Shown: positions 4,304 through 62,486 of the stretch, piece by piece
Position numbering within the stretch: the stretch's first letter is position 1
Layout: every line of letters starts with the position of its first letter
Assembly: GCA_018713745.1 (NCBI GenBank)
Contig: DVOH01000016.1
Coordinates: forward strand, 15,604 to 79,603
Length of the DNA: 64,000 nt
Direction of reading: 5' to 3'
DNA from: Candidatus Stercoripulliclostridium merdipullorum
Lineage (GTDB): Bacteria > Bacillota > Clostridia > Christensenellales > DTU072
Translations under genes and position numbers: made by a program
Notes under the pieces: generated by a model
Told to the model about the DNA's origin: nothing
The model's database searches: none
What the model saw: the letters and a program-made list of their open reading frames with translations, nothing else

Positions 4304-5545
4304 TTATTCCTCCAAAGTATAAAGATCGGCGCGGATCGAACCCGTACCGCCGAGGGTCAACGCGCGGGGCGGACGAGCGGTCGAGAACAGGGCTTTTCCG
4401 TCGAAATAAAAGGCTGCCGATGCGGGCAGAATCAGAGCGTCCACGCGAGAGACACCCGAAGAAAGCGGGAAGCGGCGTTCGGTTTTGCCGTAGGTTACGA
4501 TGACGGCGGCGGCGTCGCGGTCGAAGTCGAAGCGGAATTCCTGCGCTTCGAGGGTGACGACGGAGCCGGAAGGGCAATCGATTGAGAGCGACAATTCGGT
4601 GGGACGGTCGGTATGCAGGGTGGCTTCGGTGCCGGGAGAAAGAGAGATCGTCTTTCCGTCGTGTGCCCGTCGGCGTTCGAGGCAGGAAGGATAGGTAAGG
4701 GTAAGCGCGTCGTTCGGCGCGGTCAGAGCCGATACGACCATTCCGTTTCCGATGTCGGTCGGGGTTGTGAGCAGGGTTTCGCCGCCCGCGACGGTCGAGG
4801 TGCGCGGCGCGCGAATACCGTAGAGGACCGATGCGTTTGCGGCGGAAAAATCGGCGCGGGTCAGATCGAAGTCGCCGCGCTCCGCAAGGGCTTCGTCCGA
4901 GCGAACGTCCTTGCGGTACAGCAGGACGCTTTGTGCGTTGCAAGTGAATGCGGAGGGGTGGGAAAAGCGCGCGGGCTTTCTGCCGCGGGATTCTCGGATC
5001 GTTCCGACCGATTCCCATTTCATCAGGTTTCGGGACTCCAAAAGAACGATTTCGGAGCGAAAGGGGCGACGGATCGCGCCGAGCAGGAAGTATCGTTTTT
5101 CGGCATAAAACAGACGCGGTTCTTTGAGGTCGAAGTGCGCCGACAAGACAGGCTCGGGATGGGGATCGAAGTGCAGTCCGTCCGAAGATTTGGCAAGGTG
5201 CAGACGGGTCCCGAAGGGGGTGCGCACCGCGTAAAGCAAAGCGATTTTTCCGCCGCGCAGCAGCGTTGTACAAGCCGTGACGGAGCCGCTTGTCCGAAGG
5301 TCGACAACGGTTGCGTCGTGCCAGAAGATACGGTCGGCGGATACGGCGCGTACGATTTTTTGGGGCATTGCGGGGGCGGGACGGGCGAGAAAATAGCAGT
5401 AGTACGTCCCGTCGAGATACAGCACCGATCCGCCCTCCTTGACGGCGGCGGTCGATGGCAGATCGCCAAAGCGTTGCAGTCGGTCGAAATCCTGTTTCAT
5501 CGCATCCTCCGAGTTTATTCTATACGGAAACGGACGGTTTGTCAA
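4304..5545 (-). CDS. Beta-propeller protein resembling the GH32/GH43 (beta-fructosidase-clan) fold, catalytic motifs not evident
   Basis: 413-aa ORF. Spacing of DGTYYCYFL, FWHD, KEPRLF and LMKWESVG recalls GH32 blades, followed by a beta-sandwich-like C-terminus. I cannot find WMNDPNG, RDP or EC signatures. Confidence 0.4.
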   Translation of the reverse strand: MTNRPFPYRINSEDAMKQDFDRLQRFGDLPSTAAVKEGGSVLYLDGTYYCYFLARPAPAMPQKIVRAVSADRIFWHDATVVDLRTSGSVTACTTLLRGGKIALLYAVRTPFGTRLHLAKSSDGLHFDPHPEPVLSAHFDLKEPRLFYAEKRYFLLGAIRRPFRSEIVLLESRNLMKWESVGTIRESRGRKPARFSHPSAFTCNAQSVLLYRKDVRSDEALAERGDFDLTRADFSAANASVLYGIRAPRTSTVAGGETLLTTPTDIGNGMVVSALTAPNDALTLTYPSCLERRRAHDGKTISLSPGTEATLHTDRPTELSLSIDCPSGSVVTLEAQEFRFDFDRDAAAVIVTYGKTERRFPLSSGVSRVDALILPASAAFYFDGKALFSTARPPRALTLGGTGSIRADLYTLEE

Positions 5546-5572: not shown

Positions 5573-5917
5573 TCAGGATTCGGGGTTCGGAGCGGGCGGT
5601 ACGCGTCCCGACAGTCCGATGACGTCTTCGACGGGGAGGGACACGGCAAGTCCGTTGCCTTCGGTGTGCAGTCCCGCGGCTTCGTAGATCGCTTCGAGAA
5701 TGGCTTTGCGCAAGTCGGAGCGGGCAAGGATCAGAATAATTTCGCGTTCGGGTTCGATGGTGACGCCGAGGAATTTGCTGACGTCGGCGCCGCCCGTCCC
5801 GCGGGCGTTCAGTACGGTTCCGCCCCGTGCGCCTTCTTTGCGCGCGGCGTTCATGACGGTGTCGGCATAGCCGTGTCGGACAATGGCAAGGATCATAGAG
5901 TAGCAAGCGGATTCCAT
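5573..5917 (-). CDS. P-II-like signalling protein (non-canonical, short T-loop)
   Basis: 114-aa ORF. The pattern ILAIVRHGYADTVMNAARKEGARGGTVLNARG...REIILILA... matches the P-II ferredoxin-like beta-alpha-beta layout. The gene context (DUF1538) is typical for this subfamily. Confidence 0.7.
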   Translation of the reverse strand: MESACYSMILAIVRHGYADTVMNAARKEGARGGTVLNARGTGGADVSKFLGVTIEPEREIILILARSDLRKAILEAIYEAAGLHTEGNGLAVSLPVEDVIGLSGRVPPAPNPES

Positions 5918-5921
5918 AGGG

Positions 5922-6269
5922 TTACCTCGAAGATTTGGGTTCGCCCAGCAGATAGCGGAGGGCGGTCAGACCGGAAACGGTCGAAACGGGCAGCGAAAAC
6001 GCCACCCCCGTATTGGGTTTGTCGAAGTCCAGTTCGGTGCCGAAGGCGTCGAACAGCGACGGAACTTCTGTCGCGGCGACGAAGGCGAGGACGACGGTTT
6101 TTTCGGTTTCGCCGAAGCCCAAATAGGATTGCAGTTCGCTGGGGGCGGTGCCGACGCCGGGGGCAGCCAGCTGAACGCGAATTTTGCGGCGATTGAGCAA
6201 GCGAATCAGACGTTTGCTTTTGGTGCGGTTGACGACGGCAACGATCAGACGCATCGGTTGAGGATCCAT
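5922..6269 (-). CDS. Second, divergent P-II-like protein
   Basis: 115-aa ORF (MRLIVAVVNRTKSKRLIRLL...TVVLAFV...). Same size and secondary-structure pattern as the neighbour. The start may instead be the internal Met (MRLIVAVV). Confidence 0.6.
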   Translation of the reverse strand: MDPQPMRLIVAVVNRTKSKRLIRLLNRRKIRVQLAAPGVGTAPSELQSYLGFGETEKTVVLAFVAATEVPSLFDAFGTELDFDKPNTGVAFSLPVSTVSGLTALRYLLGEPKSSR

Positions 6270-6270
6270 G

Positions 6271-7848
6271 TCAGTTCTCCTTTGGCGCGCGGAATGCGAC
6301 GGAATATCGCGCCGCGTCGGGCAAAACGATTTCGGATTCGGGGGCGTCGCCGCGGATGCGCTTTGCGTATCTGCGCGAGCGGTAAGCGTGAAGAGAGGGG
6401 AGATAGTCGGTGCGGGCGCGGTAAATCAGTCCCATCATCTGCACCGACAGAAGCGGCGTCATTGCGACAAAGGCGACCAGCCCGTAAGCGTCGGTCAGCA
6501 GGTTGCCGCCGAGGGCGGAGCAGGCGCCGACGGCGAAGGGCAAGATAAAGGTAGCGGTTGTAGGTCCCGACGCGACGCCGCCCGAGTCGAACGCGACGGC
6601 GGTGAAGATATCGGGGACGAAAAAGGACAAGAGAAGGGATACCGCGTAAGCGGGTGCAACGAAGTACCAAATGCTGACCGAAGTCAAAACGCGCAGCATT
6701 GCAAGTCCGACCGATGCCGAAACGCCGAGCGCAAGGCAAAGGAGCATTTTGCGGCGGGAGACGGTACCGCCGGTCAGATCCTCGACCTGCTTGTTGAGAA
6801 CGTGCACGGCGGGTTCGGCAAGAATGACGCAGCAACCCATGACGACGCCGAGCGGAATCAGAAAGGCGGGGGCGGAAAGGGCGACGGCTTCGCCGAGGGC
6901 GGCGCCCATGGGCATAAATCCGACGTTGACGCCGGTGAGAAAGACCGAAAGTCCGAAGTAAGCGTAAACGACGCCCACACCGATGCGGATCAGGTTTGCC
7001 GCGGGCAGGCGGAGGGCGAAGATCTGAAACAGCAAGAACACGCCGACGACGGGGAAGAGGGCGAGGGCGACCTCTTTGAGATATCGAGGCAGGGCGCCGA
7101 AAAAGGGGAGGATGGCTTCCGCGGCATTTGTGACCTGCGGGATGACGGTTTGGGAGGGGGTAACGTCGACCGAACCGGTCAAGCCGACGATCATGACGGC
7201 GATGACGGGACCCACCGAGCAAAGGGCGACCAAGCCGAAGGAATCGCGCGAGCTGTTTTTGCCGCGGACGGAAGCAAGCCCGATGCCGAGCGCCATCAGA
7301 AAGGGGACGGTAACGGGACCCGTGGTGACGCCGCCCGCGTCGAACGCGACGGCAAGGAAGTTGTCGGGGACAAAGGCGGCAAGGAGAAAGAGCAAGCCGT
7401 AGAGCAGGAGCAAAAGAAGATTGAGCGGAATATTGAACGCCATGCGGCACACCGCGACGAGCAGCGAGATTCCCACGCCGAGGGCGACGGAATAGAGGAT
7501 GGCGGCGTTAAGCCCTTCGCCTTGCTGCAACTGCGTTGCAAGCACCTGCAGATCGGGTTCGGCAACCGTGATCAAAAAGCCTAAGACGAAGCAAACGCCG
7601 AGAATCAAAGGAAGCTTTTTGGATTTGGTCAAAAAAGCACCGATGGAGTGCCCCATCGGCATCATGGCGAGATCGGTGCCCACGGTGAACAGCGTCATGC
7701 CGACGATCAGAAAAACGGATCCCACGGCAAACAAGCCGATCAGCCCTCCGTCGATTTTACGGGTGATCAGCGCGGCGACGATCCCGAGCACCGTGATCGG
7801 CAGAATGGATACCAGCGATTCGCGCAGTTTGAGCAGGACGTTTTTCAA
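6271..7848 (-). CDS. Fused double DUF1538 integral membrane protein
   Basis: 525-aa polytopic ORF with TTG start. It has two homologous halves, each with FDAGGVTTGP / FDSGGVASGP motifs. The family is normally encoded as two genes of about 250 aa next to P-II-like genes. Confidence 0.75.
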   Translation of the reverse strand: MKNVLLKLRESLVSILPITVLGIVAALITRKIDGGLIGLFAVGSVFLIVGMTLFTVGTDLAMMPMGHSIGAFLTKSKKLPLILGVCFVLGFLITVAEPDLQVLATQLQQGEGLNAAILYSVALGVGISLLVAVCRMAFNIPLNLLLLLLYGLLFLLAAFVPDNFLAVAFDAGGVTTGPVTVPFLMALGIGLASVRGKNSSRDSFGLVALCSVGPVIAVMIVGLTGSVDVTPSQTVIPQVTNAAEAILPFFGALPRYLKEVALALFPVVGVFLLFQIFALRLPAANLIRIGVGVVYAYFGLSVFLTGVNVGFMPMGAALGEAVALSAPAFLIPLGVVMGCCVILAEPAVHVLNKQVEDLTGGTVSRRKMLLCLALGVSASVGLAMLRVLTSVSIWYFVAPAYAVSLLLSFFVPDIFTAVAFDSGGVASGPTTATFILPFAVGACSALGGNLLTDAYGLVAFVAMTPLLSVQMMGLIYRARTDYLPSLHAYRSRRYAKRIRGDAPESEIVLPDAARYSVAFRAPKEN

Positions 7849-7895
7849 GGCAAAACCTTTGTGTCGGAAGCCGACGTTCGATCGATACTATCAAT

Positions 7896-7924
7896 ATTAT
7901 ACTCTGCCGAACGCGCGAAGTCAA
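7896..7924 (-). promoter_or_regulatory. Sigma-A type promoter for the DUF1538/P-II-like block
   Basis: Minus strand TTGACT (7924-7919), 17 nt, TATAAT (7901-7896). Confidence 0.5.
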
Positions 7925-7946
7925 AGAAACACAAAGGAAATCGGAT

Positions 7947-8504
7947 TTAATCGCGATACAGAATTTTTTCGGCAATTTCGCGGCGGGAACAGCGTTGATT
8001 CATCGCTTCTTTCTCGATCATGCGATGGGCTTCGGCTTCGTCGACGCCTTTGACCGACATCAAGCGGAATTTGGCGCGTTCGATCAGTTTGATCTCTTCG
8101 AGCTGGCGGCGAAGTCGGAGGTTTTCGAGATGCAGAGAGTCGATTTTGCGGTGCAGAACGCCGAGGGTGCGGACGGTATTGAGCAGTGTCGTTTGACTGA
8201 GCGGTTTGGTCAGCACGACGATGCCGCGACCGGCGAGTCCTCCTTCGGGGTTCGGCGTGTGGTCGGCGGGCACGATCAGAACGACCGCGATGCCGCGTTC
8301 GGCGGCGGCAAGGGCAAGCTCCCGCCCCGTTCCGTCGGCAAGCGGCGCGTTGATCAGCAAAAGGGCGGGTTGAGTTGCAAGCATCGTTTTTTTTGCTTCG
8401 GCAAGGGTCGTCACGACAGACAGCGCGTAGCCGCTTGCGGCAAACAAGCGGACGGTGCGCGCGTCGATGACGGGAGTCGAAACAAACAATGCCGGTTGCA
8501 ACAT
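7947..8504 (-). CDS. ANTAR-domain RNA-binding antiterminator with receiver-like N-domain (NitR-like)
   Basis: 185-aa ORF. The C-terminus (LEEIKLIERAKFRLMSVKGVDEAEAHRMIEKEAMNQRCSRREIAEKIL) is a clear ANTAR helix bundle. The N-terminal half has the receiver fold. Sits 10 nt downstream of glnA with its own SD. Confidence 0.8.
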   Translation of the reverse strand: MLQPALFVSTPVIDARTVRLFAASGYALSVVTTLAEAKKTMLATQPALLLINAPLADGTGRELALAAAERGIAVVLIVPADHTPNPEGGLAGRGIVVLTKPLSQTTLLNTVRTLGVLHRKIDSLHLENLRLRRQLEEIKLIERAKFRLMSVKGVDEAEAHRMIEKEAMNQRCSRREIAEKILYRD

Positions 8505-8514
8505 AACAGCTCCT

Positions 8515-9807
8515 TCAGATACGGCTTAAGTAGCGGCGCAAGGTGTATTCGCGCTTGTCGATCGCCTTCTGATAATCTTCCCACTCCTGTTTTTTTGCGG
8601 CAAGGAAGCGGGCAAAAACGGAGGGCGGCAGGACGGCGCGAACAAAGTCCGACCGTTCGGCAAAGGCAATGGCTTCGCCGAGATCTGCGGGCAATGCTTC
8701 ATAGGGGGGATCGATCGCCTCGTAAAGATTGAGGTCGGCAGGCGGGGCAAGGCGCATCGAATGCTCCAGTCCCTCGGCACCCGCCCGAAGAATCAGCGCA
8801 TAGGCAAGGTAAGGGTTGCAGGAGGGATCGGGAGAACGCAGTTCCATCCGCGAGTCGGCGCCGCTTGCCGCGGGAATCCGCACCAGCTGCGAGCGGTTTT
8901 CGCGCGACCAGCTGACATAGCGCGGGGCTTCGTACTCGCCGAGACGCTCGTAGGAGTTGGCAAGGGGATTGCAAAAGAGAGAAATCTCTTTGATGCGATT
9001 CAGGATCCCCGCGATAAAGCTTTCGGTTTCCGATTTGTTGGCTTGTCGGGCAAACAGGTTTTCGCCGTTTTTGAGGAGGGAGAGGTTGACGTGCATCCCC
9101 GATCCCGCGGAATCGGGGAGGGGTTTGGGCAAGAAGGACGCAGTCAGTCCCAAGGTGTCGGCAACCGTGCGGACGACGGTACGGAAGGTGACGACGTCGT
9201 CTGCCGCGACGGCGGCGTCGTTGTAGCGGAAGTCGATTTCGTTTTGCCCGGGGCCTTGCTCGTGGTGGGCGGTCAGGGGTTGAATGCCCAATGCTTCGAG
9301 CGCGACGCAGATCCGTTTGCGGACATCCTCTCCTTTGTCGAGGGGGCTGACGTCCATATATCCTCCGCGGTCGAGGGGCTGGGGCTGCCCCGACGATTTT
9401 TCAAACAAATAGAATTCGCATTCGCTTCCGATCTGACAGAGATAGCCTTTGCGGGCAAGGTCGTCCTGCGCCCGAAGCAGCAGGTTGCGGCAGTCCCCCT
9501 CGAAAGGCGTTCCGTCGGGTCGGCGAATATTGCAGAAAAACCGGATCGTCGCGCCTTGCTCCGACCGCCACGGCAAAAGGCTAACCGTGGAGGGATCGGG
9601 GAACAGGAAAAGGTCGCTTTCTTCGACGTTCATGAATCCCGCAACGGCGGAGGCGTCGAACGAAACGCCGTGTTCGAACGCGCGGGGAAGCTCTTCGGCA
9701 ACGAGAGTAATGTTTTTTTGCGTTCCGAAGAGGTCGGCAAAGGTCAGGCGGACAAATTTGACTTGATTGTCCCGCACAAACTGCAGGACTTCGCGGACGG
9801 TGTTCAT
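8515..9807 (-). CDS. glnA: Glutamine synthetase, type I
   Basis: 430-aa ORF. N-terminal beta-grasp (VKFVRLTFADLFGTQKNI) and catalytic domain motifs (GSECEFYLF, GSGMHVNLSL, NPYLAYA). Confidence 0.9.
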   Translation of the reverse strand: MNTVREVLQFVRDNQVKFVRLTFADLFGTQKNITLVAEELPRAFEHGVSFDASAVAGFMNVEESDLFLFPDPSTVSLLPWRSEQGATIRFFCNIRRPDGTPFEGDCRNLLLRAQDDLARKGYLCQIGSECEFYLFEKSSGQPQPLDRGGYMDVSPLDKGEDVRKRICVALEALGIQPLTAHHEQGPGQNEIDFRYNDAAVAADDVVTFRTVVRTVADTLGLTASFLPKPLPDSAGSGMHVNLSLLKNGENLFARQANKSETESFIAGILNRIKEISLFCNPLANSYERLGEYEAPRYVSWSRENRSQLVRIPAASGADSRMELRSPDPSCNPYLAYALILRAGAEGLEHSMRLAPPADLNLYEAIDPPYEALPADLGEAIAFAERSDFVRAVLPPSVFARFLAAKKQEWEDYQKAIDKREYTLRRYLSRI

Positions 9808-9839
9808 AGTGCCTCCGGCATCTTTGTAAGTATAGATTT

Positions 9840-9868
9840 ATTTTACTCTTCCAAACGGCTGTCGTCAA
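9840..9868 (-). promoter_or_regulatory. Sigma-A type promoter for glnA
   Basis: Minus strand TTGACG (9868-9863), 17 nt, TAAAAT (9845-9840). Short leader with GGAGG before the ATG. Confidence 0.45.
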
Positions 9869-9952
9869 TGGGAGGCGGAAAAGCAATCGAAGCGAAGTTG
9901 ATTTATTTACGATAGATTTGCCTTAAAAAATCGGCGGGCTATGCAAAAATCG

Positions 9953-9982
9953 TTGACAAGAAGCGTCTTGAACCGCTATACT
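9953..9982 (+). promoter_or_regulatory. Sigma-A type promoter for glnN
   Basis: TTGACA 9953-9958, 18-nt spacer, TATACT 9977-9982. Confidence 0.5.
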
Positions 9983-9995
9983 GAGACCAACTTGA

Positions 9996-10011
9996 GCAAC
10001 AAAGGCGTTGC
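9996..10011 (+). promoter_or_regulatory. Candidate antiterminator hairpin with ANTAR-type hexaloop
   Basis: GCAAC (9996-10000) / GTTGC (10007-10011) stem closing the loop AAAGGC (A at position 1, G at position 4). Its 3' half is shared with the 5' arm of the terminator that follows. Confidence 0.4.
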
Positions 10012-10036
10012 AGAGATGCTCTGCGACGCCTTTTTT
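10004..10036 (+). terminator. Intrinsic terminator inside the glnN 5' leader
   Basis: GGCGTTGCAGAG (10004-10015), loop ATG, CTCTGCGACGCC (10019-10030; one G-U pair), then TTTTTT 10031-10036. Located about 70 nt upstream of the glnN start. Confidence 0.6.
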
Positions 10037-10106
10037 AACATTGTAATGTGCGCCCGCGCGCTGAGTGGAACAAAAATTACCGAAAAGGAAAAAAGGAGAA
10101 CCGACA

Positions 10107-12185
10107 ATGAATATGTCCGAACTGTTCGGCTGTATGGTGTTCAACGATTCCGTCATGCAGGAACGTTTGCCCAAGGCGACGTATAAAGAACTCAAAACCT
10201 GCATCGCCGAGGATCGTAGTCTTCCCCTTCACGTTGCCAACGTCGTTGCCAACGCGATGAAGGACTGGGCGATCGAAAAAGGTTGTACGCACTTTACGCA
10301 CTGGTTCCAGCCGATGACGGGGGTAACCGCCGAAAAGCACGACTCGTTTATCAATCCGACGCCCGACGGCAAGGTGATTATGGAGTTCAGCGGCAAGGAG
10401 CTGATCAAAGGCGAACCCGACGCGTCGAGTTTTCCGTCCGGGGGACTGCGCGCAACGTTTGAAGCGCGGGGATATACCGCCTGGGATCCCACGTCCTATG
10501 CTTTCATCAAAGACGGAATCCTGTGCATCCCGACGGCGTTCTGCTCGTACGGCGGGGACGCGCTGGACAAAAAAACGCCTCTTCTGCGCAGTATGGAAGC
10601 CGTCAACCGCCAGGCAATGCGGATCATCCGTTTGTTCGGCAAAACCGACGTTCACAAGGTTCTGACGACGGTCGGGTCGGAGCAGGAATACTTTTTGATC
10701 GACCGCGAAATGTTTGACAAGCGCAAAGATCTTTTGCTGACGGGCAGGACGGTGTTCGGCGCCAGAAGTCCCAAGGGACAGGAGCTGGAAGATCACTATT
10801 TCGGCGCCATCAAACCGCGCGTCGTCGCTTATATGAAAGAGCTGGACGAAGAACTCTGGAAACTCGGGATTCTTGCCAAAACCAAGCACAACGAAGTCGC
10901 TCCTGCGCAGCACGAGCTTGCCCCGATTTATACGACAACCAACATCGCGACCGATCAGAACCAGCTGACGATGGAAGTGATGAAAAAAGTTGCGGCAAAA
11001 CACGGGATGGTCTGTCTGCTGCACGAAAAACCGTTTGCAGGCGTCAACGGCAGCGGGAAGCACAACAACTGGTCGATTTCGACCGATCTCGGCGAAAATC
11101 TGTTGGAACCCGGCGATACGCCCTACGAAAACGCACAGTTTCTGCTGTTTCTCTGTGCCGTGATCAAAGGGGTGGACGAGTATCAGGATTTGTTGCGGAT
11201 CTCGGTCGCGAGCGCAGGGAACGACCACCGTCTCGGCGCCAACGAAGCGCCTCCCGCGATCGTATCGATGTTCCTCGGCGAGGAGCTGACCGGCATTCTC
11301 GAGGCGATCGAAGGCGGCAGAACTTATTCCCGCCGCGCAAAGTGCGAAGTGGAAATCGGCGTGCACGTTCTGCCCAAATTCCCCAAAGACAGCACCGACC
11401 GCAACCGTACCTCTCCGTTTGCGTTCACGGGCAACAAATTCGAGTTCCGTATGCTGGGATCGACCTTCAGCATCGCGGGGTCCAATATCGTCCTCAATAC
11501 GATTGCCGCCGAAGAACTTCGACGTTTTGCCGACGAACTGGAGGCGGCACCCGACTTTTTGCCCGCGATCACCGAAATCGTCAAGCGGACGGTCCGCGAA
11601 CACAAACGGATTATTTTCAACGGGAACAACTATTCGGACGAGTGGGTCAAAGAAGCAAAGCGCAGAGGGCTTAGCAACTTCCGCACGGCGGCGGACGCGA
11701 TTCCGCACTTTGCCGATGCGCACAACGTCGAATTGTTTGTCCGACACGGCGTCTTTACCGAAAGCGAAGTCAAAACCCGTACCGAAATTTTGTTGGAAGG
11801 CTACTGCAAAACGCTGCACATCGAGGCAATGACGATGATCGATATCGCCCGTCAGCAGATCTTGCCCGCCGTTCTGAAATACGGCAAGGAACTTGCCGGC
11901 GCCGCGCTCAAAATGCGGGAGCTGTCCGCCGAGATCGATACGTCGGTCGAAATCGGTCTGATCAAAAAGCTGACCGACTTCGGCAAAGAAGCCGCCGGCG
12001 CATTGCAGCTTCTCGAGCGGGAGACCGAAAAAGCCGCGGCAAAAATGAGTGCCGAGGCATACCGCGACAAAGTGATTCCCGCAATGGAGCGGCTCCGCAA
12101 AGCCGTGGACGAACTGGAGCTGTATACCGCGTCGGAATACTGGCCGCTCCCGTCTTACTGCGATCTGCTGTATTCCGTCCGATAA
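10107..12185 (+). CDS. glnN: Glutamine synthetase, type III
   Basis: ATG at 10107 preceded by AAAAGGAG. The roughly 692-aa product begins [30 protein letters not shown]... and carries HWFQPMTG and [10 protein letters not shown] motifs typical of GSIII. Confidence 0.9.
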
Positions 12186-12461: not shown

Positions 12462-15400
12462 ATGACGCGATTTGCCGATCGATTGTTCAGACGCAAAATG
12501 CTGCTCGCTTTGGGGCTTGTTGTGTTGGTCGTGATGACCGCGGTATTTGCATGGGGGGCGGCACCCGACCCCGCGCCCGCGGTGCAGGCGGCATGGAGCG
12601 GGAACGCCGCTTCGGGATTTGCCGGCGGAACGGGGACCGCAGATGATCCTTACCGCATCGCGACGGCAGAGCAGCTCGCCTATTTCCGTAATCAGGTCAA
12701 CGGCGGCAGAACGTTCGAAGGGGAATACATTGTCCTGACCGCCAACATCGATCTGATCGGCACTTCGGGCACAAAGCAGGGCTTCGGGACGATCGGGACA
12801 CCTACAATTGATTACGGAGAGGAATACCGGCCAAATGGGGCGGGCGGAAATGTTCGTATCGCAACCGGCGTCAGCGGCACGCCGTTTCAGGGCGTGTTTG
12901 ACGCGCGGATTTACGAAATCAAAAATCTGTATTGGAACGGCGGCGACTATCGCGGACTTTTCGGCTATATCGGCGAAAAGGGGAAGGTTTACAACGTAAC
13001 GATCTCCAACGTCGAGCTGATCTCGACGGGGTCGCTCAACGGGACGATCGCCGCCGTCAACCGCGGACTGATCGACAACTGCGTCGTCGCAAGCGGAACG
13101 GTCAAAAGCGCGGGAAGAGCGGGCGGCATCGTCGGCTTCAATTACGGCGGTACGGTGCGCAACTCGATCAACTGGGCAAATGTTTCGGCAAATGGAAAAT
13201 CGATCGTCGGAAATCATATCCCGGGGATTCACAATGTCGACTGGCTCGGGTCTGATTTCGGCGGTATCGCGGGCGTCATGACTTCGGGCGCCGTCATCGA
13301 TCAGTGCGCCAATTACGGCAACGTAACAGGTAGCGCCGAAGTGGGAGCGGATTCCGGTGGCACCAGGGCAGGCGGTTTGGCAGGGCTCCTTGATACTTCG
13401 ACGATCAGTGATTCCTATTTTATCGGCTCCTTGTCCAACCGCAACACGAATGACATCGGAGGCTTTACCGGTTCTATTTACGACGGTACGGTGACAAACT
13501 GTTATCACCAAAGCGGGGCATCCAAATTGTACGGGTGGGAGCAGTCGACAACCGGCGGCACCCGCACCAACAACCATGCAAGCGGTTCGGAGGCGGCAGG
13601 AAGTCTGAATAACGGAGTCTGGAAGGTCGACACCGCCCGCCACAACGGCTATCCCTATCTGATCAACACCAGACTGTTCGACAGCTATGCCGCGTCCCAG
13701 TCCGATCTCGGGCTTCTGCCCGAAGGTAGCGTTCCCGCAGGATATAACAATACTAACGGGACCCCAATAAGCAGTGCGGATGATTTTTATGCGTTTAGAA
13801 ATGCAGAAAATACAACCCAAAATTATTATTTGACGCAAGACATCACCGTTACATATCCCAAAAACGGCAATAACATTGTACATTATGGTTTATGGTACGG
13901 AGGAACTTTTGACGGGAACGGACATACCATCACGTTTCAGGCAGGAACTTCAGGCAGTTGGTGCAGTACGATGCGGTACAGCCGGGCATTTGGTGGATTT
14001 TTTGCGTCAACCATTAATGGCGGAACCGTCAAAAACCTGAAAATCGTTGTGGAGGATTCCTATACGACAACCGATCTCGACAATACAGAAGTAACAAGCG
14101 GCTTCGGTGTTATTGCAGGAGATGTCTCGGGTGCAACGATCGACAATGTTTCGGTTGAAGTGAAGACGCTTAAGTTCCATACGGAATGTAACTATGGAGG
14201 ATGGACTAACAGAGTAAATTGGTATGGACAAACCAGTTTCGGCGGTTTGTTCGGAACGGCAAACGATGCCAACAATAACGGCGTAACGATCCGAAATACG
14301 AGCGTAACATTTACAGGAACGCCGGAATTCAAAAGAAAAACGGATGATGGTGGCGTTTGGTCTTTCTTTGGAGGGTTAATCGGTAATATCAAAAACACCG
14401 CGGCAATCAATATACAAGGAGTGAGGGTTCATTTCCAAAACGGTGCCAGGTATTTGATGTATCGGAGCAACAGCGGTCATTTTGGCGGAATGATCGGGGA
14501 AACATATGCGGGCGGAACGGTCAATATTTCGGACAGCTTTTACGATTTCGACGGAGAGTTATACACTGAAAATTTGACCGGCGGATACAAAGGGAAACTG
14601 ATCGCCGCAGTACAAAGCGGCACGACAAAACTGAACAATATCTATTACGGACCCGGTGCAGAAGCTTCCAAAATCTATGTACCTAACGGGGGAGAGCCCA
14701 CGCAAAAAAATTATTATGAGATTGCAGGCTTTGATGGAGCAGGATTTCTTCGCGCTGACTTTGATCCCCAAACACCGGGAATGATGTGGGTTACCCTGAA
14801 TGCCGACGGGGGGAGTGAAACCCTCGGCCGCGCGGGAGAGTGGGACTGGAGTAAGGACTGGGACGGCATGATCCTGGTCGGCAGTCAACCCGGGACCTAT
14901 TCGGTCCGGATGTCGACGGCGCAACTCAAAGCGTTTTCGACCCTTAACAAAGGAACGGGATCGGTTTCCAACGATCTTTATACGGATGTTAATCTTTCTT
15001 CTTCCTTATCCTTTTCGGGACAGGCCTCCGGCATCGTTTCCGAACTGCGCAAGTGGCAAACGTCACCGCCCGAAATGCGAAATTATTTCGGGACCTGGCG
15101 CGGAGGCATTGCCGTTGAGAGCGGAAGCGGTACGGTCGAGATCTTCGACAAGGAGACGGGAGAATTTGTCTGGGCGACCGACGGGAGCCAAAACGGCAAT
15201 TACTTTGACAACGACGGCAATCTCGTCACCAATGACAAAGGGATCGGGCATTTGATCCCGGGGACGTATGTCGCGCGCCTTGTTCATCCCTATGCTGCCG
15301 TCTTGCATCATGGATCTACCAACCGGTATTGGTACGACTTCGAGACAATTCCTTTTGTCGAATTTACCATCGAGCCCAAAACCGTGACGGTCGAGGCCTC

Positions 15401-18400
15401 TGCTTCTTATGTCTACGGCGATAAGGCGGCAGGCGCCGATCTCGGGCACACCGTTTGGACGTCGGGCGGAACGCAAATCACGGCAGAGGACTATACCTTT
15501 ACGACAAGCGGCAATATCGCAGAGATTCCCTTCTATCTCACGTTTTCGGTTGCGGCGGCAGGGACTTCTCCCCGCCCGGCAGGAAGCTATCCGATTTCGG
15601 TCTCTACCTCGTCGCCGATCTACTCCATTGGCGGAACGGCAGGAAACTACGTCGTCAGTCCTAAGCCCGTCACCGTGACGATCGCAAGCGCCAACAAAAC
15701 GTACGGCGACGGCGATCCGACGTTTGCCTGGTCGACGACGGATACCCTTCCTTACGGCGAAGTCGCGAAAGACGTTTTGGGTATTACGCTGTCCCGCGAC
15801 GAGGGCGAAGACGTCAAAGATGGCGGCTATGCGATCACGGGATCGTCGACCAACGGGAATTACGCCATCAGCTGGGCCAACGGAACGCTGACGATCAACC
15901 CCAAAGCGATTACCGTGACGATCGACGACAAAACGCAGGTTTACGGGGATCCCGAGGAAACTTTGACCTGTAGCGTCGGCGGTCTGGTGAACGGCGATAC
16001 CGAAGGGGATCTCAACATTCACTTACAAAGAGCGGAGGGGCGAGACGTGGCGAAGTATCCCATTACGGGGACTTATACCAACGCCAATTATACCGTCACG
16101 TTTACGGACGGTGTTTATACGATCACCCCGCGTCCGATCACCGTGACGATCGCAAGCGCCAACAAAACGTACGGCGACGGCGATCCGACGTTTACCTGGT
16201 CGACGGCGGACTCGCTCCCTTACGGCGAAGTCGCGGAAGAAGTTTTGGGTATTACCCTGTCCCGTGAAGGGGGCGAAGACGTCAAAGATGGCGGCTATGC
16301 GATCACGGGATCGTCGACCAACGGGAATTACGCCATCAGCTGGACCAACGGCACGCTGACGATCGACCCCAAAGCGATCACCGTGACGATCGACGACAAA
16401 ACGCAGGTTTACGGGGATCCCGCAGTTGCGTTGACCGCGCAGACAGAGGCGACGCTTCCTTACGGCGATCTGCTGGAAAATATCGTGTCACTGACCCGCG
16501 AAGCGGGCGATACCGTCAAAGAGGGCGGCTACGCGATCACGGGCGAAGGAGTAAGCGACAACTATAACGTCACATTTCATAATAACGGCGTTTATACGAT
16601 CACCGCGCGCCCCGTTACCGTGACGCTGACCTTCGGCGGTTTGACGGAAGAGGGCGGCATCTATTATTGGACGTACGGCGATTACGGCGCGGGCGGCTTC
16701 GGAACCGGAACGGCAACGATAACCGTTTCGGAGAGCGGCTTGGTATCGGGCGACGGCGTCGGGGCAGACTTCGCCGTTACGCAAGAGGGCATTGCCGCAA
16801 CCCTGAAAAATGTCGGAACCTATACCTTCGGCATTGTGTTGACGGGGGACAACGCCCGCAACTACGCGCTGACCAAAGTGTTTGAAGGGATTACGGGCGA
16901 AGGCGACACGCGCGATGTCGAAGTCCGTCCGTTGGTGCTCGAATATACGACGAAGTCCGCAAGTTTTGTATACAATGAATATACGGCGGAAAAGCCGCTT
17001 CCCTCCCCCGACGCGATCGGCGCCAAGGCAACTCTCGAGACGGAGCTTCCGTACGGCGACGCGGAGCCGGAAATTGTCCTTGTTTATACCGATGATCCCG
17101 CCGAGATCATGAAATTGTCGGTGGGGGAATACAAAAAAATTCTGATGCAACTCGCCGAGGGGCAAAGCAATTACAGCCTTTCCGCAGACAGCGATCTGAT
17201 TACGCTGATCATAGAGAAGGGGACGATCTCTCTTGCGTTGGACGAAAGTTTTGTCACGGATTATACCTATGCGGCGGATCTTAGCGTTTCGTTCGGCGAT
17301 AAATTGACCGCGAAGGACGAGTTTGGGAAGCCTTATGTTCCCCAATATACTGCCAAACTCTATTTCGACGAAAGTAAAAAGTGGTTTGAAGGTACGACCT
17401 CGGTCGGTGTTCCGTATGTTCCGTCCGTCGATCAGGAAGAAACGTTTGTTACGCTGACGCTCGAAATCCTTGTAAGCAGCGATTCCAACTACAACGACGC
17501 TACGCTGACGGTACCGATTACGTTGCGGAAAGGGGCGTTCGATCTTACGGGCGTAACGTTTGAGAATCAGACGTTTATCTATGACGGAACCGCGCACGAA
17601 ATGGCTTTTGCGGGGTTGCCGATCGCGCAGAACGGTGAAACGCTGAGCGGCAGCGTCGTTTATCCCGACGGCGCCGATCGCGTCAACCATACCCCCGCCC
17701 CGATCGCGGCGCAACTGGTCTTTACCGTTTCGGGCAAAGAGTATGACGGAATTACCTATTATAATTACAAGATTCCCGATCCGTGGACGGCGACCATGAC
17801 GATCGACAAGGCAACCGTCGATCTCTCCCGCTACGGCTTGGTGCTCGAACGCAGACAACAGGCGGACGGCGCGGTACGCGAAACCCTTACGATCGAAGGG
17901 AGTTCCGTTACGGTTGTTTATTATGCGGGGTGCGCGTTCTTCGTCGTGCCCGACGCCGATCTTCCCGCCTTTATCGAGGCGGAGATAACGGGAGAAGCCG
18001 CCGCGACGGGTGCCGGCGCGGTCAAGTGGGATGTGACGAATCGGAAAGCGCTTTCCTATCAATTCACCGTTAAGTTCAGTCTGAGCGACGCAAACGGCAA
18101 TTACGAAATTTCCGGCGCCGATCAGCGCACCGTCGAGGTTACCGTCGAACAGCGCAAAGTTACGCTGTCGCCCCGTCGACAGGATACCGTATTTAACGGC
18201 GAACAGCAGATTCCGAGTGCGGACCTTACCAAGTGGCGGTACGCCTTCGAGGGTGTAGAAGGAGAGGCGCTTGCCGCTTTCCTTGCCGACTTTGAGAAAA
18301 GCGGAACGTTTGCCGCGCGTGCCGAGTCCTTTACCTCGATCGGCACTGATAAGGCGGTCAACGCCGGGATTTACGCCATCAACGGCGTTTATACCCCCGA

Positions 18401-21400
18401 TTCGGGCAATTACAACTATGCCGTCACCGTCAACAAATCGCAAGAAAATTCGGCAGACAGCGCCGACGCCTTTGTCATCGCCAAAGCGCAATACGGAAAC
18501 CTCGACAACGTGACGTTCGACGGAAAAACCGTCGTCTACGACGGAAACGCGTATACGATCACGGTTTCGGGGCTTCCGACAGACGTCAACGGTGTCGGGG
18601 TCGAACCGCAGTATTCGGTGACGAAAGACGGCAGCGCGACGGAAGACGTCTTCTTTACCAACGCGGGAACGTATGACTATGTCGCGATTTGGAACGATCT
18701 CAATTACGAGGCAGTGACGCGGGAAGCGACGCTTATCATCCAAAAGGCAACCTTCGATCTTTCCGTCGTTCGGTTCGAGGACGGCACGTTTATCTACGAC
18801 GGGCAGTATCATAGCCTTGCCCTTTCGTCGGACGAGCCCCTCCCCGATTGGATTACGGTTTCTTACAGCTCCAACAATTCCAAAAAGGATGTCGGCCCCT
18901 CCTTGGTGGTTACGCTGGAGCTTTCCCACGAAAACCCCAACTATCATGCGTTCGACGCAAGTGTCGCGCAACAACGCGCAACGCTTACCATCGCGGCGCG
19001 CCCCATCGATGTGACGATTCTGTCCGCAAGCAAGGTGTACGGCGATGTCGATCCCGCTTTCGACTGGGAGAGCGGCGAAGGCTTGGTCGAAGGGGACGAT
19101 CTGAAGATTACGGTAAGCCGCGACGATCGCGACAATCAAAACGTCGGTACTTACGTATTGAACGGGACAAGCGGCAACGGGAATTATGCCGTTACCTTCA
19201 ATTCCGATGCCGTTCTGACGATCGGGCAACGCGACCTTGTGATCGATCTCGATAGCGTTTCGAAGGTTTATCGCTATCCCGATCCCAATCCCGACCCCGA
19301 TCTGACGTTCGGGATTGCGGACGGATATCAATTATATTATGACGATACCGTTGCGCTTCTCGGCGTTACGCTCAGTCGCGCCGCGGGTGAAACGGCAGGG
19401 AGTTACGAGATCACGGCAACCCTTCCCGACGCCGGCAACTATCGCATTACGGTCGGCAGAACCGCGGTCTTGACGATTGCAAAAGCCGACGTTACGATCG
19501 GCGTCGAGGGCATCGTCAAGGACTATGTTTACACCGGGGTGTCCTTCCGCATCGAAACAGGGGCGACCCACAATAATACCGACGAGGGCGCGGTGCTGAT
19601 CTATCCCGACAAGGACTTCCTGCTGGTTGCCGATTCGGGCGAATACACCGTGTCGATTGCCGAAACCGCCAACTACAATGCCCAAAGCGTAACCTTTACC
19701 GTTACCATTGTCAGAGCCGACGTCGCGTTTGATTTCGGCGGGGTCGGGCAGTATGTTTACAACGGTTCGCTGCAGACCGTCACGGGCGTTACCCACACCA
19801 ATACCGATGCCGAAGCAACCTTAGTGTATCGCAATCATACGTTTACCGATGTTCCCGAAAACGGGATCCTGACGATCGAGGTTTCGATTGCCCAAACCGC
19901 AAACTTTAATGCGGCGAGCGCAACCTTCGACGTTACGGTCGACAAAGCGACGTATGTCATCGATATCGCCTTTGACGATCAAACCGTCCGCTATCACGGC
20001 GACGCCGTCGACCTTTTGATCGCAGGGGAGCTCCCCGAGGGCGTAACCGTCCGCTATACCGGCAACGGCAATCGCAATCAGGGCGTATATGTGGTCGTTG
20101 CCGAATTCGAGGGCGACGGACGCAACTATCATCCCATCCCCGATCGCGAAGCAACGCTGACGATTCTGCCCGCGTCGCTTTCGGTTACGATCGACGATCA
20201 GACTTCGGTTTACGGCGATGCGCTCAATACGTTGACCTATCTTGTCGAAGGAGAAATCTACAGCCAGGACGGCGTCAAGGACGATCCGATGATCGGCGTA
20301 TTCAAAGAAGACGGGCTTCGTGCGGGCGAGTACGCAATCACGGGACACGGCGGCAATGCCAACTATGACGTGACGTTTGAGAGCGCCGTTTATCGCATCA
20401 CCCCGCGGGAAGCAACGCTTACCGCCAATGAGGTGACTGCCGTTTACGGCGATCTCGACACGGCATTGACCTTTGTCGCGGACAACGTGCTGGACGGCGA
20501 TCTCGAGCGGTTTACGGGCGGGTTGCAACGCGAACCCGGCAGAAACGTAGGGAAATACGCGATCTCTTCCACACTTGCCAATCCCGACTATACGATCACG
20601 TTTGTTTCGGCAGATTATATCGTTTTGCCGCGCGAAGTGACCGTTACCCTGCGCGATCAGTCGGGCATTTCGGGCGAGGACGTTCTCAGCCAGTCGGCGT
20701 ATGACATTACCGACGGCAACGTGATCGCAGGCGATACGCTGGGGCTCCGTTTGCGGCGCGCACCCGGGACCACGCGCGGCGAGTATCCCATCACGGCGAC
20801 CTACTCCAACAAAAACTATCTTCTGGACATCATCCCTGCAATCTATTATCTGTCCGAGCGCGCGGTCATTACGTTCACTCGTCCTTCCGACTTCGTCTAT
20901 GACGGCAATCCCTTCTCGATCAGCGCGTCGATCAACAGCGACACCGCTTTGATCTTTACCGTCAACGGCGTCCGCAGCGACAACTTCTTCGATGCGCCCG
21001 GCAATTACTCCGTCCGCATTTCGGCGACGGCAACCGACGAATACGTCGAACCCATCCCCGTCAGCTTCACCTTTACGATTTTGGCGGCGGAATTGATCTT
21101 TACCGACGAGCAGGGCGGCGAAATCATCATTTCCCTCCCCGAAGGATTTATGCCCGGCACGGCGATCGAAGTCGTTCTTGCCGAGTCTTCGGTCAAAGAC
21201 GCCATTCATAAGCAGATCTCTACCGCTTACGCCATGGTCGAGGGTTACGATATCTATATCGTCGAAAACGGCGTCAAAATCCCCCTCGGAGAGTATGTTG
21301 CGTCCGATACGCTCAAAGTCCGCATCAAACTTCCCTCCGTGTTTGCCGAGGAAGAATCGGTTTGGTTTGTCGGATTCCGAGGCGGAAAAGCCGAACTCGG

Positions 21401-60719: not shown

Positions 60720-62099
60720 TTATTTGTTTTGCGGAATGTCGAGAATGCTTGCAAAACCTTGCTCCAAATCTTCGTCGGTCGGGATATAGTCGGACATTTT
60801 TTTGTCGTTGAAGGCTTTGTATGCCGTCATATCGAAGTATCCCGTTCCGGTCAGACCGAAGAGAATCACTTTCTTTTCGCCGCTTTCCTTGCACTTCAGG
60901 GCTTCGTCGATTGCGACGCGGATGGCGTGCGAAGATTCGGGCGCGGGCAAGATGCCTTCGGTACGCGCAAAGGTTTCGGCGGCGGCAAAGACGGAGGTCT
61001 GTTCGACCGCGCGCGCTTCGAGATAGCCGTCGTGATAGAGTTTGCTGATGATCGGGCTCATGCCGTGATAGCGCAGTCCGCCCGCATGGTTGGCGCTGGG
61101 CATAAAGCCGCATCCCAGCGTATACATCCGGATCAGCGGGGTCGTGCGTCCCGTGTCGCCGAAGTCGTAAACGTATTTTCCGCGGGTCAGCGAGGGACAG
61201 GAGGCGGGTTCGACGGCAATGAAACGGATGTTGTTTTTGCCTTTGATCCGTTCGCCCATAAACGGCGCGATCAGACCTGCAAGGTTGCTGCCGCCTCCCG
61301 CGCAGCCGATGACGATGTCGGGGGCGATGCCGTACTTGTCCATGGCGATTTTGGACTCCAGCCCGATCACCGATTGGTGCAAGGCAACGTGGTCGAGGAC
61401 GCTGCCGAGGACATATCTGCAATTCGGGGTACCCAAAGCGACTTCAATCGCTTCCGAAATCGCACATCCGAGGGAGCCGCCCGTGTCGGGATGTTCGGCA
61501 AGAATCTTGCGTCCCGCCTCGGTGGTCGTCGAAGGCGAGGGGATGACTTTTGCCCCGTAAGTGCGCATGACTTCTTTGCGGTGGGGTTTTTGCTCGGAGC
61601 TGACTTTGACCATGTATACGCTGAGATCCAGTCCGTAAAACGCGCATGCCATGCTCAGTGCAGTTCCCCATTGTCCGGCGCCCGTTTCGGTCGTCAGCGA
61701 GGTCAGCCCTTCTTTTTTGGCGTAATACGCTTGCGCGACGGCGGAGTTGAGTTTGTGCGAACCCGACGTGTTGTTGCCTTCAAATTTATAGTAGATTTCG
61801 GCAGGGGTTCCGAGTGCCTTCTCGAGGAAGTACGCCCGCACCAACGGAGAGGGGCGGTACATCTCGTAAAATTCGCGGATGCCTTCGGGGATTTCGATAT
61901 AGGGATTGGTCTGGTTCAGTTCCTGTTTGACCAGTTCTTTGCAAAAGACGGGATACAGATCTTCCGCCGTGCAGGGCTTGAGCGTCGCCGGATGGAGGAA
62001 GGGATCGTGTTTTTCCTTCATGTCGGCGCGCAGATTGTACCAATAACGCGGCATTTCCTCTTCGTTCAGGTAGATTTTGGTCGGTATTTTTTTATTCAT
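60720..62099 (-). CDS. trpB: Tryptophan synthase beta chain, TrpB2 (long, stand-alone type)
   Basis: 459-aa ORF. N-terminal extension (PRYWYNLRADM...), PLP-lysine motif GSHKLN, TETGAGQWG, GGGSN. No trpA is adjacent. Confidence 0.85.
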   Translation of the reverse strand: MNKKIPTKIYLNEEEMPRYWYNLRADMKEKHDPFLHPATLKPCTAEDLYPVFCKELVKQELNQTNPYIEIPEGIREFYEMYRPSPLVRAYFLEKALGTPAEIYYKFEGNNTSGSHKLNSAVAQAYYAKKEGLTSLTTETGAGQWGTALSMACAFYGLDLSVYMVKVSSEQKPHRKEVMRTYGAKVIPSPSTTTEAGRKILAEHPDTGGSLGCAISEAIEVALGTPNCRYVLGSVLDHVALHQSVIGLESKIAMDKYGIAPDIVIGCAGGGSNLAGLIAPFMGERIKGKNNIRFIAVEPASCPSLTRGKYVYDFGDTGRTTPLIRMYTLGCGFMPSANHAGGLRYHGMSPIISKLYHDGYLEARAVEQTSVFAAAETFARTEGILPAPESSHAIRVAIDEALKCKESGEKKVILFGLTGTGYFDMTAYKAFNDKKMSDYIPTDEDLEQGFASILDIPQNK

Positions 62100-62225: not shown

Positions 62226-62486
62226 ATAAATAAAAACACGGTAAACCTCGCTTGGGACGATATTTACCGTGTTGCCACCCAATTTCACAGCTTGCGCTGC
62301 CTCGTTTGTAAGCACTATTATGCTCTGTTCCGTTACGCCGAACTCACGTCGAAAACTACTGGTTGCCGTTCGCCTTCGCCCTCAACAGTCCATTCGCCCG
62401 ACCCGTCTTACTCCGTCACACCAACCCGAAGCTCTCTGAAAATCCGATTGTCGAGGTACTACTCTGTCTCAACGGTTTATTCAATT
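62226..62486 (-). promoter_or_regulatory. T-box leader RNA, specifier codon UGG (Trp), with terminator
   Basis: Read on the minus strand. AGAGAG bulge and GGUUGGUG distal motif. Specifier loop GAA-UGG-A (UGG = 62392-62390). T-box sequence AAUUGGGUGGCAACACGG (about 62284-62267). Terminator ACACGGUAAA / UUUACCGUGU (62272-62263 / 62245-62236) plus a U-run. Confidence 0.8.

Follow-up and report, generated by a model that had tools for sequence, protein, structure and literature searches.

The leader of glnN, a gene for a type III glutamine synthetase (GS), was analyzed in a 64-kb window, the whole stretch of DNA presented above from contig DVOH01000016.1 of Candidatus Stercoripulliclostridium merdipullorum. 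This leader probably acts as an attenuator in which the ANTAR protein encoded next to glnN brings about antitermination via a single hairpin, with the activity of its pseudo-receiver being set by a partner or ligand for which GS is the best candidate. Transcription would start at a strong predicted sigma-A promoter and, within ~6 nt of the 5′ end of the RNA, a 16-nt hairpin could form whose hexaloop, AAAGGC closed by a C-G pair, is the ANTAR recognition signature. As the overlapping terminator is predicted to be far more stable than the hairpin (−24.7 versus −6.2 kcal/mol), the default outcome should be termination before glnN. An ANTAR dimer clamping the single hexaloop on its emergence would withhold the 5′ arm of the terminator and RNA polymerase would read into glnN; no second "recruitment" hairpin (P1) would take part. 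Gene calls were based on a list of open reading frames (ORFs) and on Pfam, and positions 7700 to 10400 were read at the sequence level (Table 1).

The predicted glnN promoter was identical to the consensus at 11 of 12 positions and places the transcription start near 9989-9990. The loop of the hairpin occupies 10001-10006, has A as its first and G as its fourth nucleotide, and is closed by the pair C10000-G10007. In the core of the terminator, GGCGTTGCAGAG (10004-10015) pairs with CTCTGCGACGCC (10019-10030) over 12 bp, including one G-U pair, and RNAfold lengthened this stem to 15 bp by pairing A10001-10003 with U10031-10033, yielding the free energy of −24.7 kcal/mol. Hairpin and terminator overlap by 8 nt when the core stem is considered (10004-10011, comprising the GGC of the loop and the whole 3′ arm) and by 11 nt with the extended stem (10001-10011). 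As loop and 3′ arm are reused by the 5′ arm of the terminator, the two structures exclude each other. A preliminary description of this DNA had proposed the 5-bp hairpin with loop AAAGGC at 9996-10011, a 12-bp terminator followed by T6 at 10004-10036 and the mutual exclusivity of the two; the hairpin was present as described, the terminator was borne out with three additional pairs in the RNAfold structure, and exclusivity held for the core and the extended stem alike. The fold of the 126-nt leader had a z score of −4.0 relative to shuffles. Among 44 terminator-like sites in the window, that of the glnN leader was the sole intergenic one whose 5′ arm bears an A..G.. hexaloop hairpin. With a covariance model of the hairpin (model R1), the glnN hairpin scored 25.1 bits and ranked top in the window, a rank that was obtained by construction since the model had been trained on sites including this one. 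Other matches in the window, at 41041, 41903, 40666 and elsewhere with R1 and at 18477 on the minus strand with a pattern scan, were rejected as chance matches, all of them lying inside long ORFs or antisense to them; the match at 41041 was read at the sequence level and no terminator was found after it. No Rfam family was detected for the glnN leader, either with gathering thresholds over the whole window or in E-value mode over 9800-10120, where only terminator-driven chance matches were obtained, and the leader contained no leader peptide and no T-box features.

Conservation was examined in a comparison set obtained by using the GlnN protein to scan one genome per species, which yielded 80 clostridial loci with 63 to 70% identity (individual loci are labelled L followed by a number). 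Upstream regions of 350 nt were searched for the 8-mer C-AANGG[CT]-G, which was selected by sequence alone. This 8-mer occurred 44 times in 38 of the 80 regions, against an expectation of ~3.5. The flanks of these sites were complementary for 4 to 7 bp in almost all cases and were followed by a T-run; mean flank pairing was 4.7 bp compared to 0.8 to 1.5 bp for shifted controls. Loop positions 1, 2, 4 and 5 were invariant across the 44 sites. An ungapped alignment of these sites had a covariation score of 0.521, while shuffles scored 0.266, none of 500 shuffles reached the observed score, and partner columns that had been slid scored 0.09 to 0.15. Covariation was visible in the individual pairs of the stem, with 21 CG, 13 AU and 4 UA pairs at position 7-20, 20 AU and 20 GC pairs at position 8-19, and 19 GC, 16 GU and 6 AU pairs at position 9-18. 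The frequency of G-U pairs indicates that the conserved element would be an RNA on the glnN strand rather than a DNA operator; the possibility that the inverted repeat is an operator was dismissed on the grounds of the G-U pair in 16 of 44 sites at one position and of a strand-specific link to the terminator.

The competition between the two structures was also a feature of the related sites. For 43 of 48 sites, the fold of lowest energy was a terminator that consumed the loop and the 3′ arm of the hairpin, with median energies over the related sites of −4.8 kcal/mol for the hairpin and −24.6 kcal/mol for the terminator. Hexaloop hairpins on terminator 5′ arms in these loci had loops with A1 and G4 in 45 of 193 cases, AAAGGC alone accounting for 17. 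On these comparisons, the predicted hairpin-plus-terminator module is conserved in about half of the 80 clostridial glnN leaders, and coincidence is excluded. Tandem attenuators were observed 200 to 300 nt upstream of glnN in L010, L011, L012, L040, L042, L049, L057 and L066 and, in most of these leaders, both attenuators comprised a separate A..G.. hexaloop hairpin and a separate terminator. At L052 (4904-4965), the terminator is palindromic and its opposite strand also scored as a C-AAAGGC-G hairpin (28.1 bits), probably as a by-product of the symmetry between A-tract and U-tract.

The same module was found before asnA (five loci), before amtB-glnK fusions (three loci) and before gdhA and purA. 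Together with a copy before glnA, this distribution in related Clostridia suggests that the ANTAR protein runs an ammonium-assimilation regulon, which would most likely be activated when nitrogen is limiting, in line with reports on clostridial NitR. Three modules surround a single glnA-ANTAR operon in L001, at 4376-4401 (minus strand) before purA, at 4557-4582 (plus strand) before glnA and at 6593-6618 (plus strand) after the ANTAR gene; the last of these sits between the ANTAR gene and a gene for a 455-amino-acid (aa) protein, which is followed by hisF/hisH-like genes. The module before glnA implies that the glnA-ANTAR unit of L001 would be autoregulated. For the window organism such autoregulation was considered unlikely because the predicted glnA leader is only ~25 nt long and contains no attenuator or terminator.

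The hairpin was next to a plausible regulator gene. In the window, glnA and the ANTAR gene form a unit on the minus strand that is divergent from glnN on the plus strand; the ANTAR ORF lies 3′ of glnA after a 10-nt gap that contains AGGAG, and the two genes are, given this gap, predicted to be co-transcribed. Coordinates and Pfam matches thus agreed with the gene order of the preliminary description, namely, glnA followed after 10 nt by a receiver-ANTAR gene and divergent from glnN. The start of the ANTAR ORF is 1.5 kb from the hairpin. Validated ANTAR hairpins have the consensus C-AAHGRH-G (PMC3369931, Figs. S1 and S2), and AAAGGC with its closing C-G pair was identical to nasF P2, eutA P2 and Listeria monocytogenes eutG P1 in the alignments of that study. 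Of the fetched loci, 14 had an ANTAR gene no more than 5 kb from glnN, nearly always in the divergent arrangement seen in the window. The module was present in 13 of 15 loci with an ANTAR gene, the window being counted, versus 25 of 65 loci without a visible one (P = 0.001); as the species are not independent, this enrichment is supportive rather than decisive. ANTAR RNA matches in Firmicutes had been reported for GS/ANTAR operons, amtB of Clostridium thermocellum (NC_009012.1:1820473-1820517), asparagine synthase and P-II (Ramesh 2012, Table S2; PMC3369931), and NitR is described, in a secondary account citing Stutz 2007, as an inducer of GS/GOGAT genes when nitrogen is limiting (PMC6316151). 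Antitermination of glnN by the neighboring ANTAR protein, which the preliminary description had put forward, is strongly supported by this comparison, that is, by a conserved covarying module, loop identity with validated sites and enrichment beside ANTAR genes, all of them features of sequence.

No P1 hairpin was found in the glnN leader of the window. Scans of 39 leaders for a second A..G.. hexaloop hairpin gave results at chance level; upstream (at least 3 bp, within 40 nt 5′ of the hairpin), 3 of the 39 had one compared to 3.9 expected from shuffles and, downstream, 4 were observed compared to 3.4 expected. In 28 of the 39 leaders, a near-consensus promoter (TTGAC[AGT]-N16-19-TAnnnT) was present, its end being 7 to 21 nt (median, 11.5) 5′ of the hairpin. 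As the hairpin begins a few nucleotides from the predicted 5′ end, there would be no room for P1. The finding of only one convincing hairpin in the preliminary description hence reflects a real and conserved property of this class of leaders, and the glnN site is, as judged from these predictions, a single-hexaloop variant of the ANTAR target. In the crystal structure of EutV with RNA, one dimer contacts one hexaloop and the minimal site was redefined as a single hexaloop, which makes a single-hairpin site mechanistically plausible; the authors called for further bioinformatic work on such sites (PMC8934654). A 2025 review still lists dual hairpins only (PMC12591593).

The ANTAR protein consists of a receiver-fold N-terminal domain, a coiled coil and an ANTAR domain (130-182). 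An AlphaFold model (predicted local distance difference test score, 84) contained a (beta-alpha)5 fold with beta3 at residues 48-52, a helix at 104-152 and then two further helices, and no Pfam Response_reg match was obtained for the protein at E < 0.01. The best Foldseek match was EutV bound to RNA (6WW6_B; template-modeling [TM] score, 0.73), with AmiR being the second-best full-length match (TM score, 0.65); E values for EutV, Rv1626 and AmiR were 1e-8 to 1e-6 and many receiver domains had TM scores of 0.7 to 0.8 when normalized to the target. The protein reads LLLIN52APLADG, the codon of Asn52 (AAC) being at 8349-8351 on the minus strand. As beta3 spans residues 48-52, Asn52 is placed at the phospho-acceptor site of receivers. 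The end of beta1 reads FVST, with Ser9 and Thr10 replacing the Mg2+-binding acidic pair, Val78 is found at the Thr/Ser position at the end of beta4, and Lys100-Pro101, which includes the conserved Lys of the beta5 end, is retained. In sequence alignments with Rv1626 and TorR, Asn52 was opposite their Asp, and the alignment with EutV deletes the Asp. An alternative alignment anchored on Pro54 (EutV), which brings Leu50 to the acceptor position and is also without an Asp there, was set aside as the structural model favors Asn52.

These substitutions extend to a large family. All of nine word-indexed homologues had the motif I-N-A-P-L-x-D-x-x-G, and a profile search of 1.84 billion representatives detected 752 full-length relatives at E ≤ 1e-30, each of which represents a cluster at 50% identity. 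A family alignment was made of 172 representatives, comprising the best 150 of the 752, the earlier homologues, the window protein and 14 proteins encoded by the comparison loci. Position 52 was Asn in 151 of 172 sequences and Asp in 9; the first position of the acidic pair was Ser in 133, with Ser, Ala or Gly at the second; the Thr/Ser position was Val in 128; and the Lys100 position was Lys in 146 and Arg in 20. The motif [IV]-N-[ATS]-P-L-x-D-x-x-G and K100-P101 were near-invariant. Alignments, structural model and family hence agreed with two features read by eye in the preliminary description, the Asn in place of the phospho-acceptor Asp and the loss of the N-terminal acidic pair. On the model, the N-terminal domain is a receiver fold that could not be phosphorylated. 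The ANTAR domain appears intact: K145 and E156 align with K149 and E160 of EutV, which contact RNA, and a family-invariant His160 aligns with Tyr164 of EutV, which stacks on G4 (PMC8934654), while the position of EutV Arg142 is Ile138 with K139 adjacent to it. Members of the family are labelled "ANTAR domain-containing response regulator" or "NasT" in databases, and the closest named relative was from Candidatus Stercoripulliclostridium merdipullorum. Cultured relatives with the module or with members of the family include Dysosmobacter, Butyricicoccus, Pseudoflavonifractor and Claveliimonas.

Since the acceptor site holds Asn and both the acidic pair and the Thr/Ser are missing, this protein would not be switched by a kinase and its activity would have to come from a partner or ligand; we infer regulation by protein-protein contact. 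The best candidate partner would be the co-transcribed type I GS, which could sense glutamine and, as a "trigger enzyme", sequester or release the ANTAR protein, in parallel with AmiC-AmiR, NasS-NasT and GS-TnrA/GlnR. Directly upstream of the ANTAR gene, glnA was found in 13 of 15 distinct loci, whereas P-II-like and DUF1538 genes are neighbors of the ANTAR gene solely in 98%-identical relatives. This contrast favors GS and weakens the P-II-like proteins as candidates, and the P-II-like/DUF1538 proteins were rejected as a conserved partner since their adjacency is not kept beyond close relatives. The catalytic motifs of the window GS are intact and its closest solved relatives are the GS of Methanosarcina mazei and Bacillus subtilis, both of which are reported to signal through protein contacts. 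In L001 to L003, the region 3′ of the ANTAR gene instead contains glutamine amidotransferases (pyrG, purF, guaA and hisH/F) and NAD synthase; this setting suggests that the glnA-ANTAR unit is embedded in glutamine-consuming pathways. In L086, L088 and L089, whose ANTAR proteins are 98% identical to that of the window, genes resembling glutamate synthase (Glu_synthase and GXGXG) are located upstream of glnA, at the place of the divergent glnN in the window and in L087. This strain-level rearrangement keeps the glnA promoter, and the promoter of the glnA-ANTAR operon of the window was detected in L086.

Several observations weigh against the mechanism set out above. The step to GS as partner is drawn from gene adjacency only, and L024 and L064 have an ANTAR gene without an adjacent glnA. 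The second point leaves some room for an alternative in which the attenuator is the same and the nitrogen signal bypasses GS, either through a small molecule (glutamine, 2-oxoglutarate or a nucleotide) that directly occupies the conserved pseudo-receiver pocket or through docking of a P-II-type protein. This alternative is less likely but has to be taken seriously. The pocket is unusually conserved for a degenerate receiver among the 172 representatives, NasT of Pseudomonas putida is reported to bind cyclic di-GMP directly (PMC10783516), and the window contains, 1.7 kb downstream, two P-II-like ORFs, of which only one passes the Pfam P-II threshold. Adjacency of the P-II-like genes is, as described, confined to near-identical relatives, amidotransferases taking their place in L001 to L003, no ligand can be inferred from the sequence, and the predominance of glnA beside the ANTAR gene (13 of 15 loci) argues for input through GS.

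A further point against antitermination by the ANTAR protein is that 25 glnN loci have the module but no ANTAR gene in their 5-kb flanks. Such loci would be expected if the hairpin were bound by a non-ANTAR factor, or acted without protein as an RNA-stability or pausing element, with the ANTAR protein having its targets elsewhere. The absence of P1, a hairpin that is indispensable in the EutV, NasR and AmiR systems, and the lack of an Rfam family covering the element point in the same direction. This explanation was nevertheless judged improbable: loop and closing pair are identical to those of validated ANTAR sites, the module is enriched beside ANTAR genes, three copies surround the glnA-ANTAR operon of L001, a 16-nt hairpin is too small for a riboswitch, and neither a leader peptide nor T-box features were found.

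The requirement of the EutV system for P1, for the P1-P2 spacing and for the dimer in antitermination (PMC8934654) also counts against a functional single hairpin. Moreover, only ~10 to 20 nt separate emergence of the hairpin from the 3′ arm of the terminator and there is no recruiting hairpin, such that efficient capture needs explaining. In another alternative, the site is a canonical dual-hairpin target whose P1 has been missed, the transcript starting further upstream than the predicted promoter. The transcription start is indeed predicted rather than mapped, and a small hairpin, CAAG-AAGCGT-CTTG, is present at 9959-9972, 23 nt upstream of P2. This hairpin was rejected as P1 because the fourth nucleotide of its loop is C instead of G, because it falls within the −35 box and spacer of the promoter and because it is not conserved. 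With second hairpins at chance rate on both sides in the 39 leaders and a near-consensus promoter ending 7 to 21 nt before the hairpin in 28 of them, a missed P1 is very improbable. Weaker still, to the point of being scarcely credible, is the explanation that an ordinary leader terminator happens to contain the hairpin by chance and that glnN is regulated at its promoter only, for although the 5-bp stem is weak and the conservation of the loop is partly demanded by the terminator (AAA being the A-tract opposite the U-tract and GGC the GC-rich base), conservation and covariation extend across dozens of species and several gene families, and we estimate that any one terminator arm would carry a 5-bp A..G.. 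hexaloop hairpin with an a priori probability of <1%.

The proposed attenuator resembles the EutV-controlled eut leaders of Enterococcus faecalis (PMC3369931, PMC8934654) in its A1/G4 hexaloop with a closing C-G pair, the loop of eutA P2 being AAAGGC, in the sharing of the 3′ arm of the hairpin with an intrinsic terminator and in the receiver-fold, coiled-coil and ANTAR architecture of the regulator. It differs in having one hairpin, without P1, at the extreme 5′ end of the predicted transcript, and in a receiver with Asn52 and no acidic pair that would not be phosphorylatable and has no adjacent kinase gene. The G4-stacking Tyr is replaced by His, and the regulon is concerned with ammonium assimilation rather than ethanolamine use. 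Non-phosphorylated receivers that are held by an adjacent sensor protein are known from AmiC-AmiR of Pseudomonas aeruginosa and NasS-NasT of Paracoccus (PMC3795266). The window shares with these systems a pseudo-receiver and an ANTAR gene located immediately 3′ of, and apparently co-transcribed with, a gene for a protein that could sense the relevant metabolite. The neighbor is here an intact GS, a candidate partner only, and not a periplasmic-binding-protein-like sensor; furthermore, the pocket is strongly conserved, with Asn rather than random loss, and the RNA site has a single hairpin.

The order glnA followed by an ANTAR regulator is shared with NitR of Clostridium saccharobutylicum, for which antitermination of nitrogen-assimilation genes under nitrogen limitation has been proposed (Stutz 2007, cited in PMC6316151 and PMC4676874). 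The target in the window is the divergently transcribed glnN, unlike NitR as described in those accounts. The matches in Table S2 of Ramesh 2012 involve the same gene classes (GS, amtB and asparagine synthetase) and the same terminator-overlap logic, but were found and reported with a two-hairpin model of 45 to 60 nt; the second hairpin is absent here and the promoter leaves no room for it. With the GS-TnrA/GlnR circuit of B. subtilis (PMC4335299, PMC9249791), the window has in common a type I-alpha GS in an operon with a nitrogen regulator that could report glutamine by contact. The regulator would here act on RNA and termination instead of DNA and initiation, and the interaction with GS is hypothetical. 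Overall, the system belongs to the known ANTAR/NitR kind of nitrogen regulon predicted in 2012, departing from the canonical RNA motif in its single hairpin and from phosphorylatable receivers in the residues described above.

It is conceivable, if somewhat doubtful as a whole, that the ammonium-assimilation regulon (glnN, asnA, amtB-glnK, gdhA, glnA and purA) of Clostridia from gut and rumen is controlled via an unrecognized sub-class of ANTAR regulators, for which a single 5′-terminal hexaloop is sufficient and in which a kinase-independent "Asn-receiver" is set by the co-transcribed GS. If true, the Bacillus GS-TnrA/GlnR circuit would have an equivalent at the level of RNA, and a question raised by the EutV-RNA structure, namely, whether attenuation can operate through single-hexaloop sites, would be answered. 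ANTAR antitermination is conventionally presented as requiring two hairpins; the window locus and ~50 related leaders provide bioinformatic evidence for single-hexaloop sites in attenuation, together with covariation and a defined promoter context. The family of 752 representatives is annotated as response regulators yet appears not to be phosphorylatable, and points to GS as a testable sensor partner. According to a 2026 multi-omics study, many rumen bacteria are without known nitrogen regulators (PMC13196213), a gap that would be partly closed by an ANTAR-based regulon in these Clostridia. For annotation of the window, glnN can be described with confidence as putatively attenuator controlled, with the neighboring ANTAR gene as its likely regulator.

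Table 1. Features of the glnN region, with positions numbered from the first nucleotide of the window
Feature	Position	Strand	Description
DUF1538 membrane protein and two P-II-like ORFs	5573-7848	minus	P-II-like ORFs of ~115 aa; promoter-like site at 7924-7896 (minus)
ANTAR protein ORF	7947-8504	minus	185 aa; Pfam ANTAR, residues 130-182, E = 1.7e-16
glnA	8515-9807	minus	Type I-alpha glutamine synthetase, 430 aa; Pfam Gln-synt_N and Gln-synt_C
Predicted promoter of glnA-ANTAR operon	9840-9868	minus	TTGACG, 17-nt spacer, TAAAAT
Predicted sigma-A promoter of glnN	9953-9982	plus	−35 TTGACA (9953-9958), 18-nt spacer, −10 TATACT (9977-9982)
Hairpin (P2-like)	9996-10011	plus	GCAAC-AAAGGC-GUUGC; 5-bp stem, −6.2 kcal/mol
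Intrinsic terminator	10001/10004-10036	plus	12-bp core extended to 15 bp, then T6 (10031-10036)
glnN	10107-12185	plus	Type III glutamine synthetase, 692 aa; Pfam GSIII_N, E = 1.3e-80, and Gln-synt_C-ter, E = 1.2e-43

Two further features of the window were recorded. Directly 3′ of the glnN terminator, an ORF of 3036 aa (12462-21572, plus strand) is rich in repeated modules, has a hydrophobic segment at the N terminus and a membrane anchor at the C terminus, and probably encodes a giant surface protein. A full-length T-box leader (Rfam RF00230, 113.8 bits) is present at 62250-62481 on the minus strand, upstream of a 459-aa ORF (60720-62099, minus strand) that, by eye, resembles a TrpB-type tryptophan synthase beta chain.

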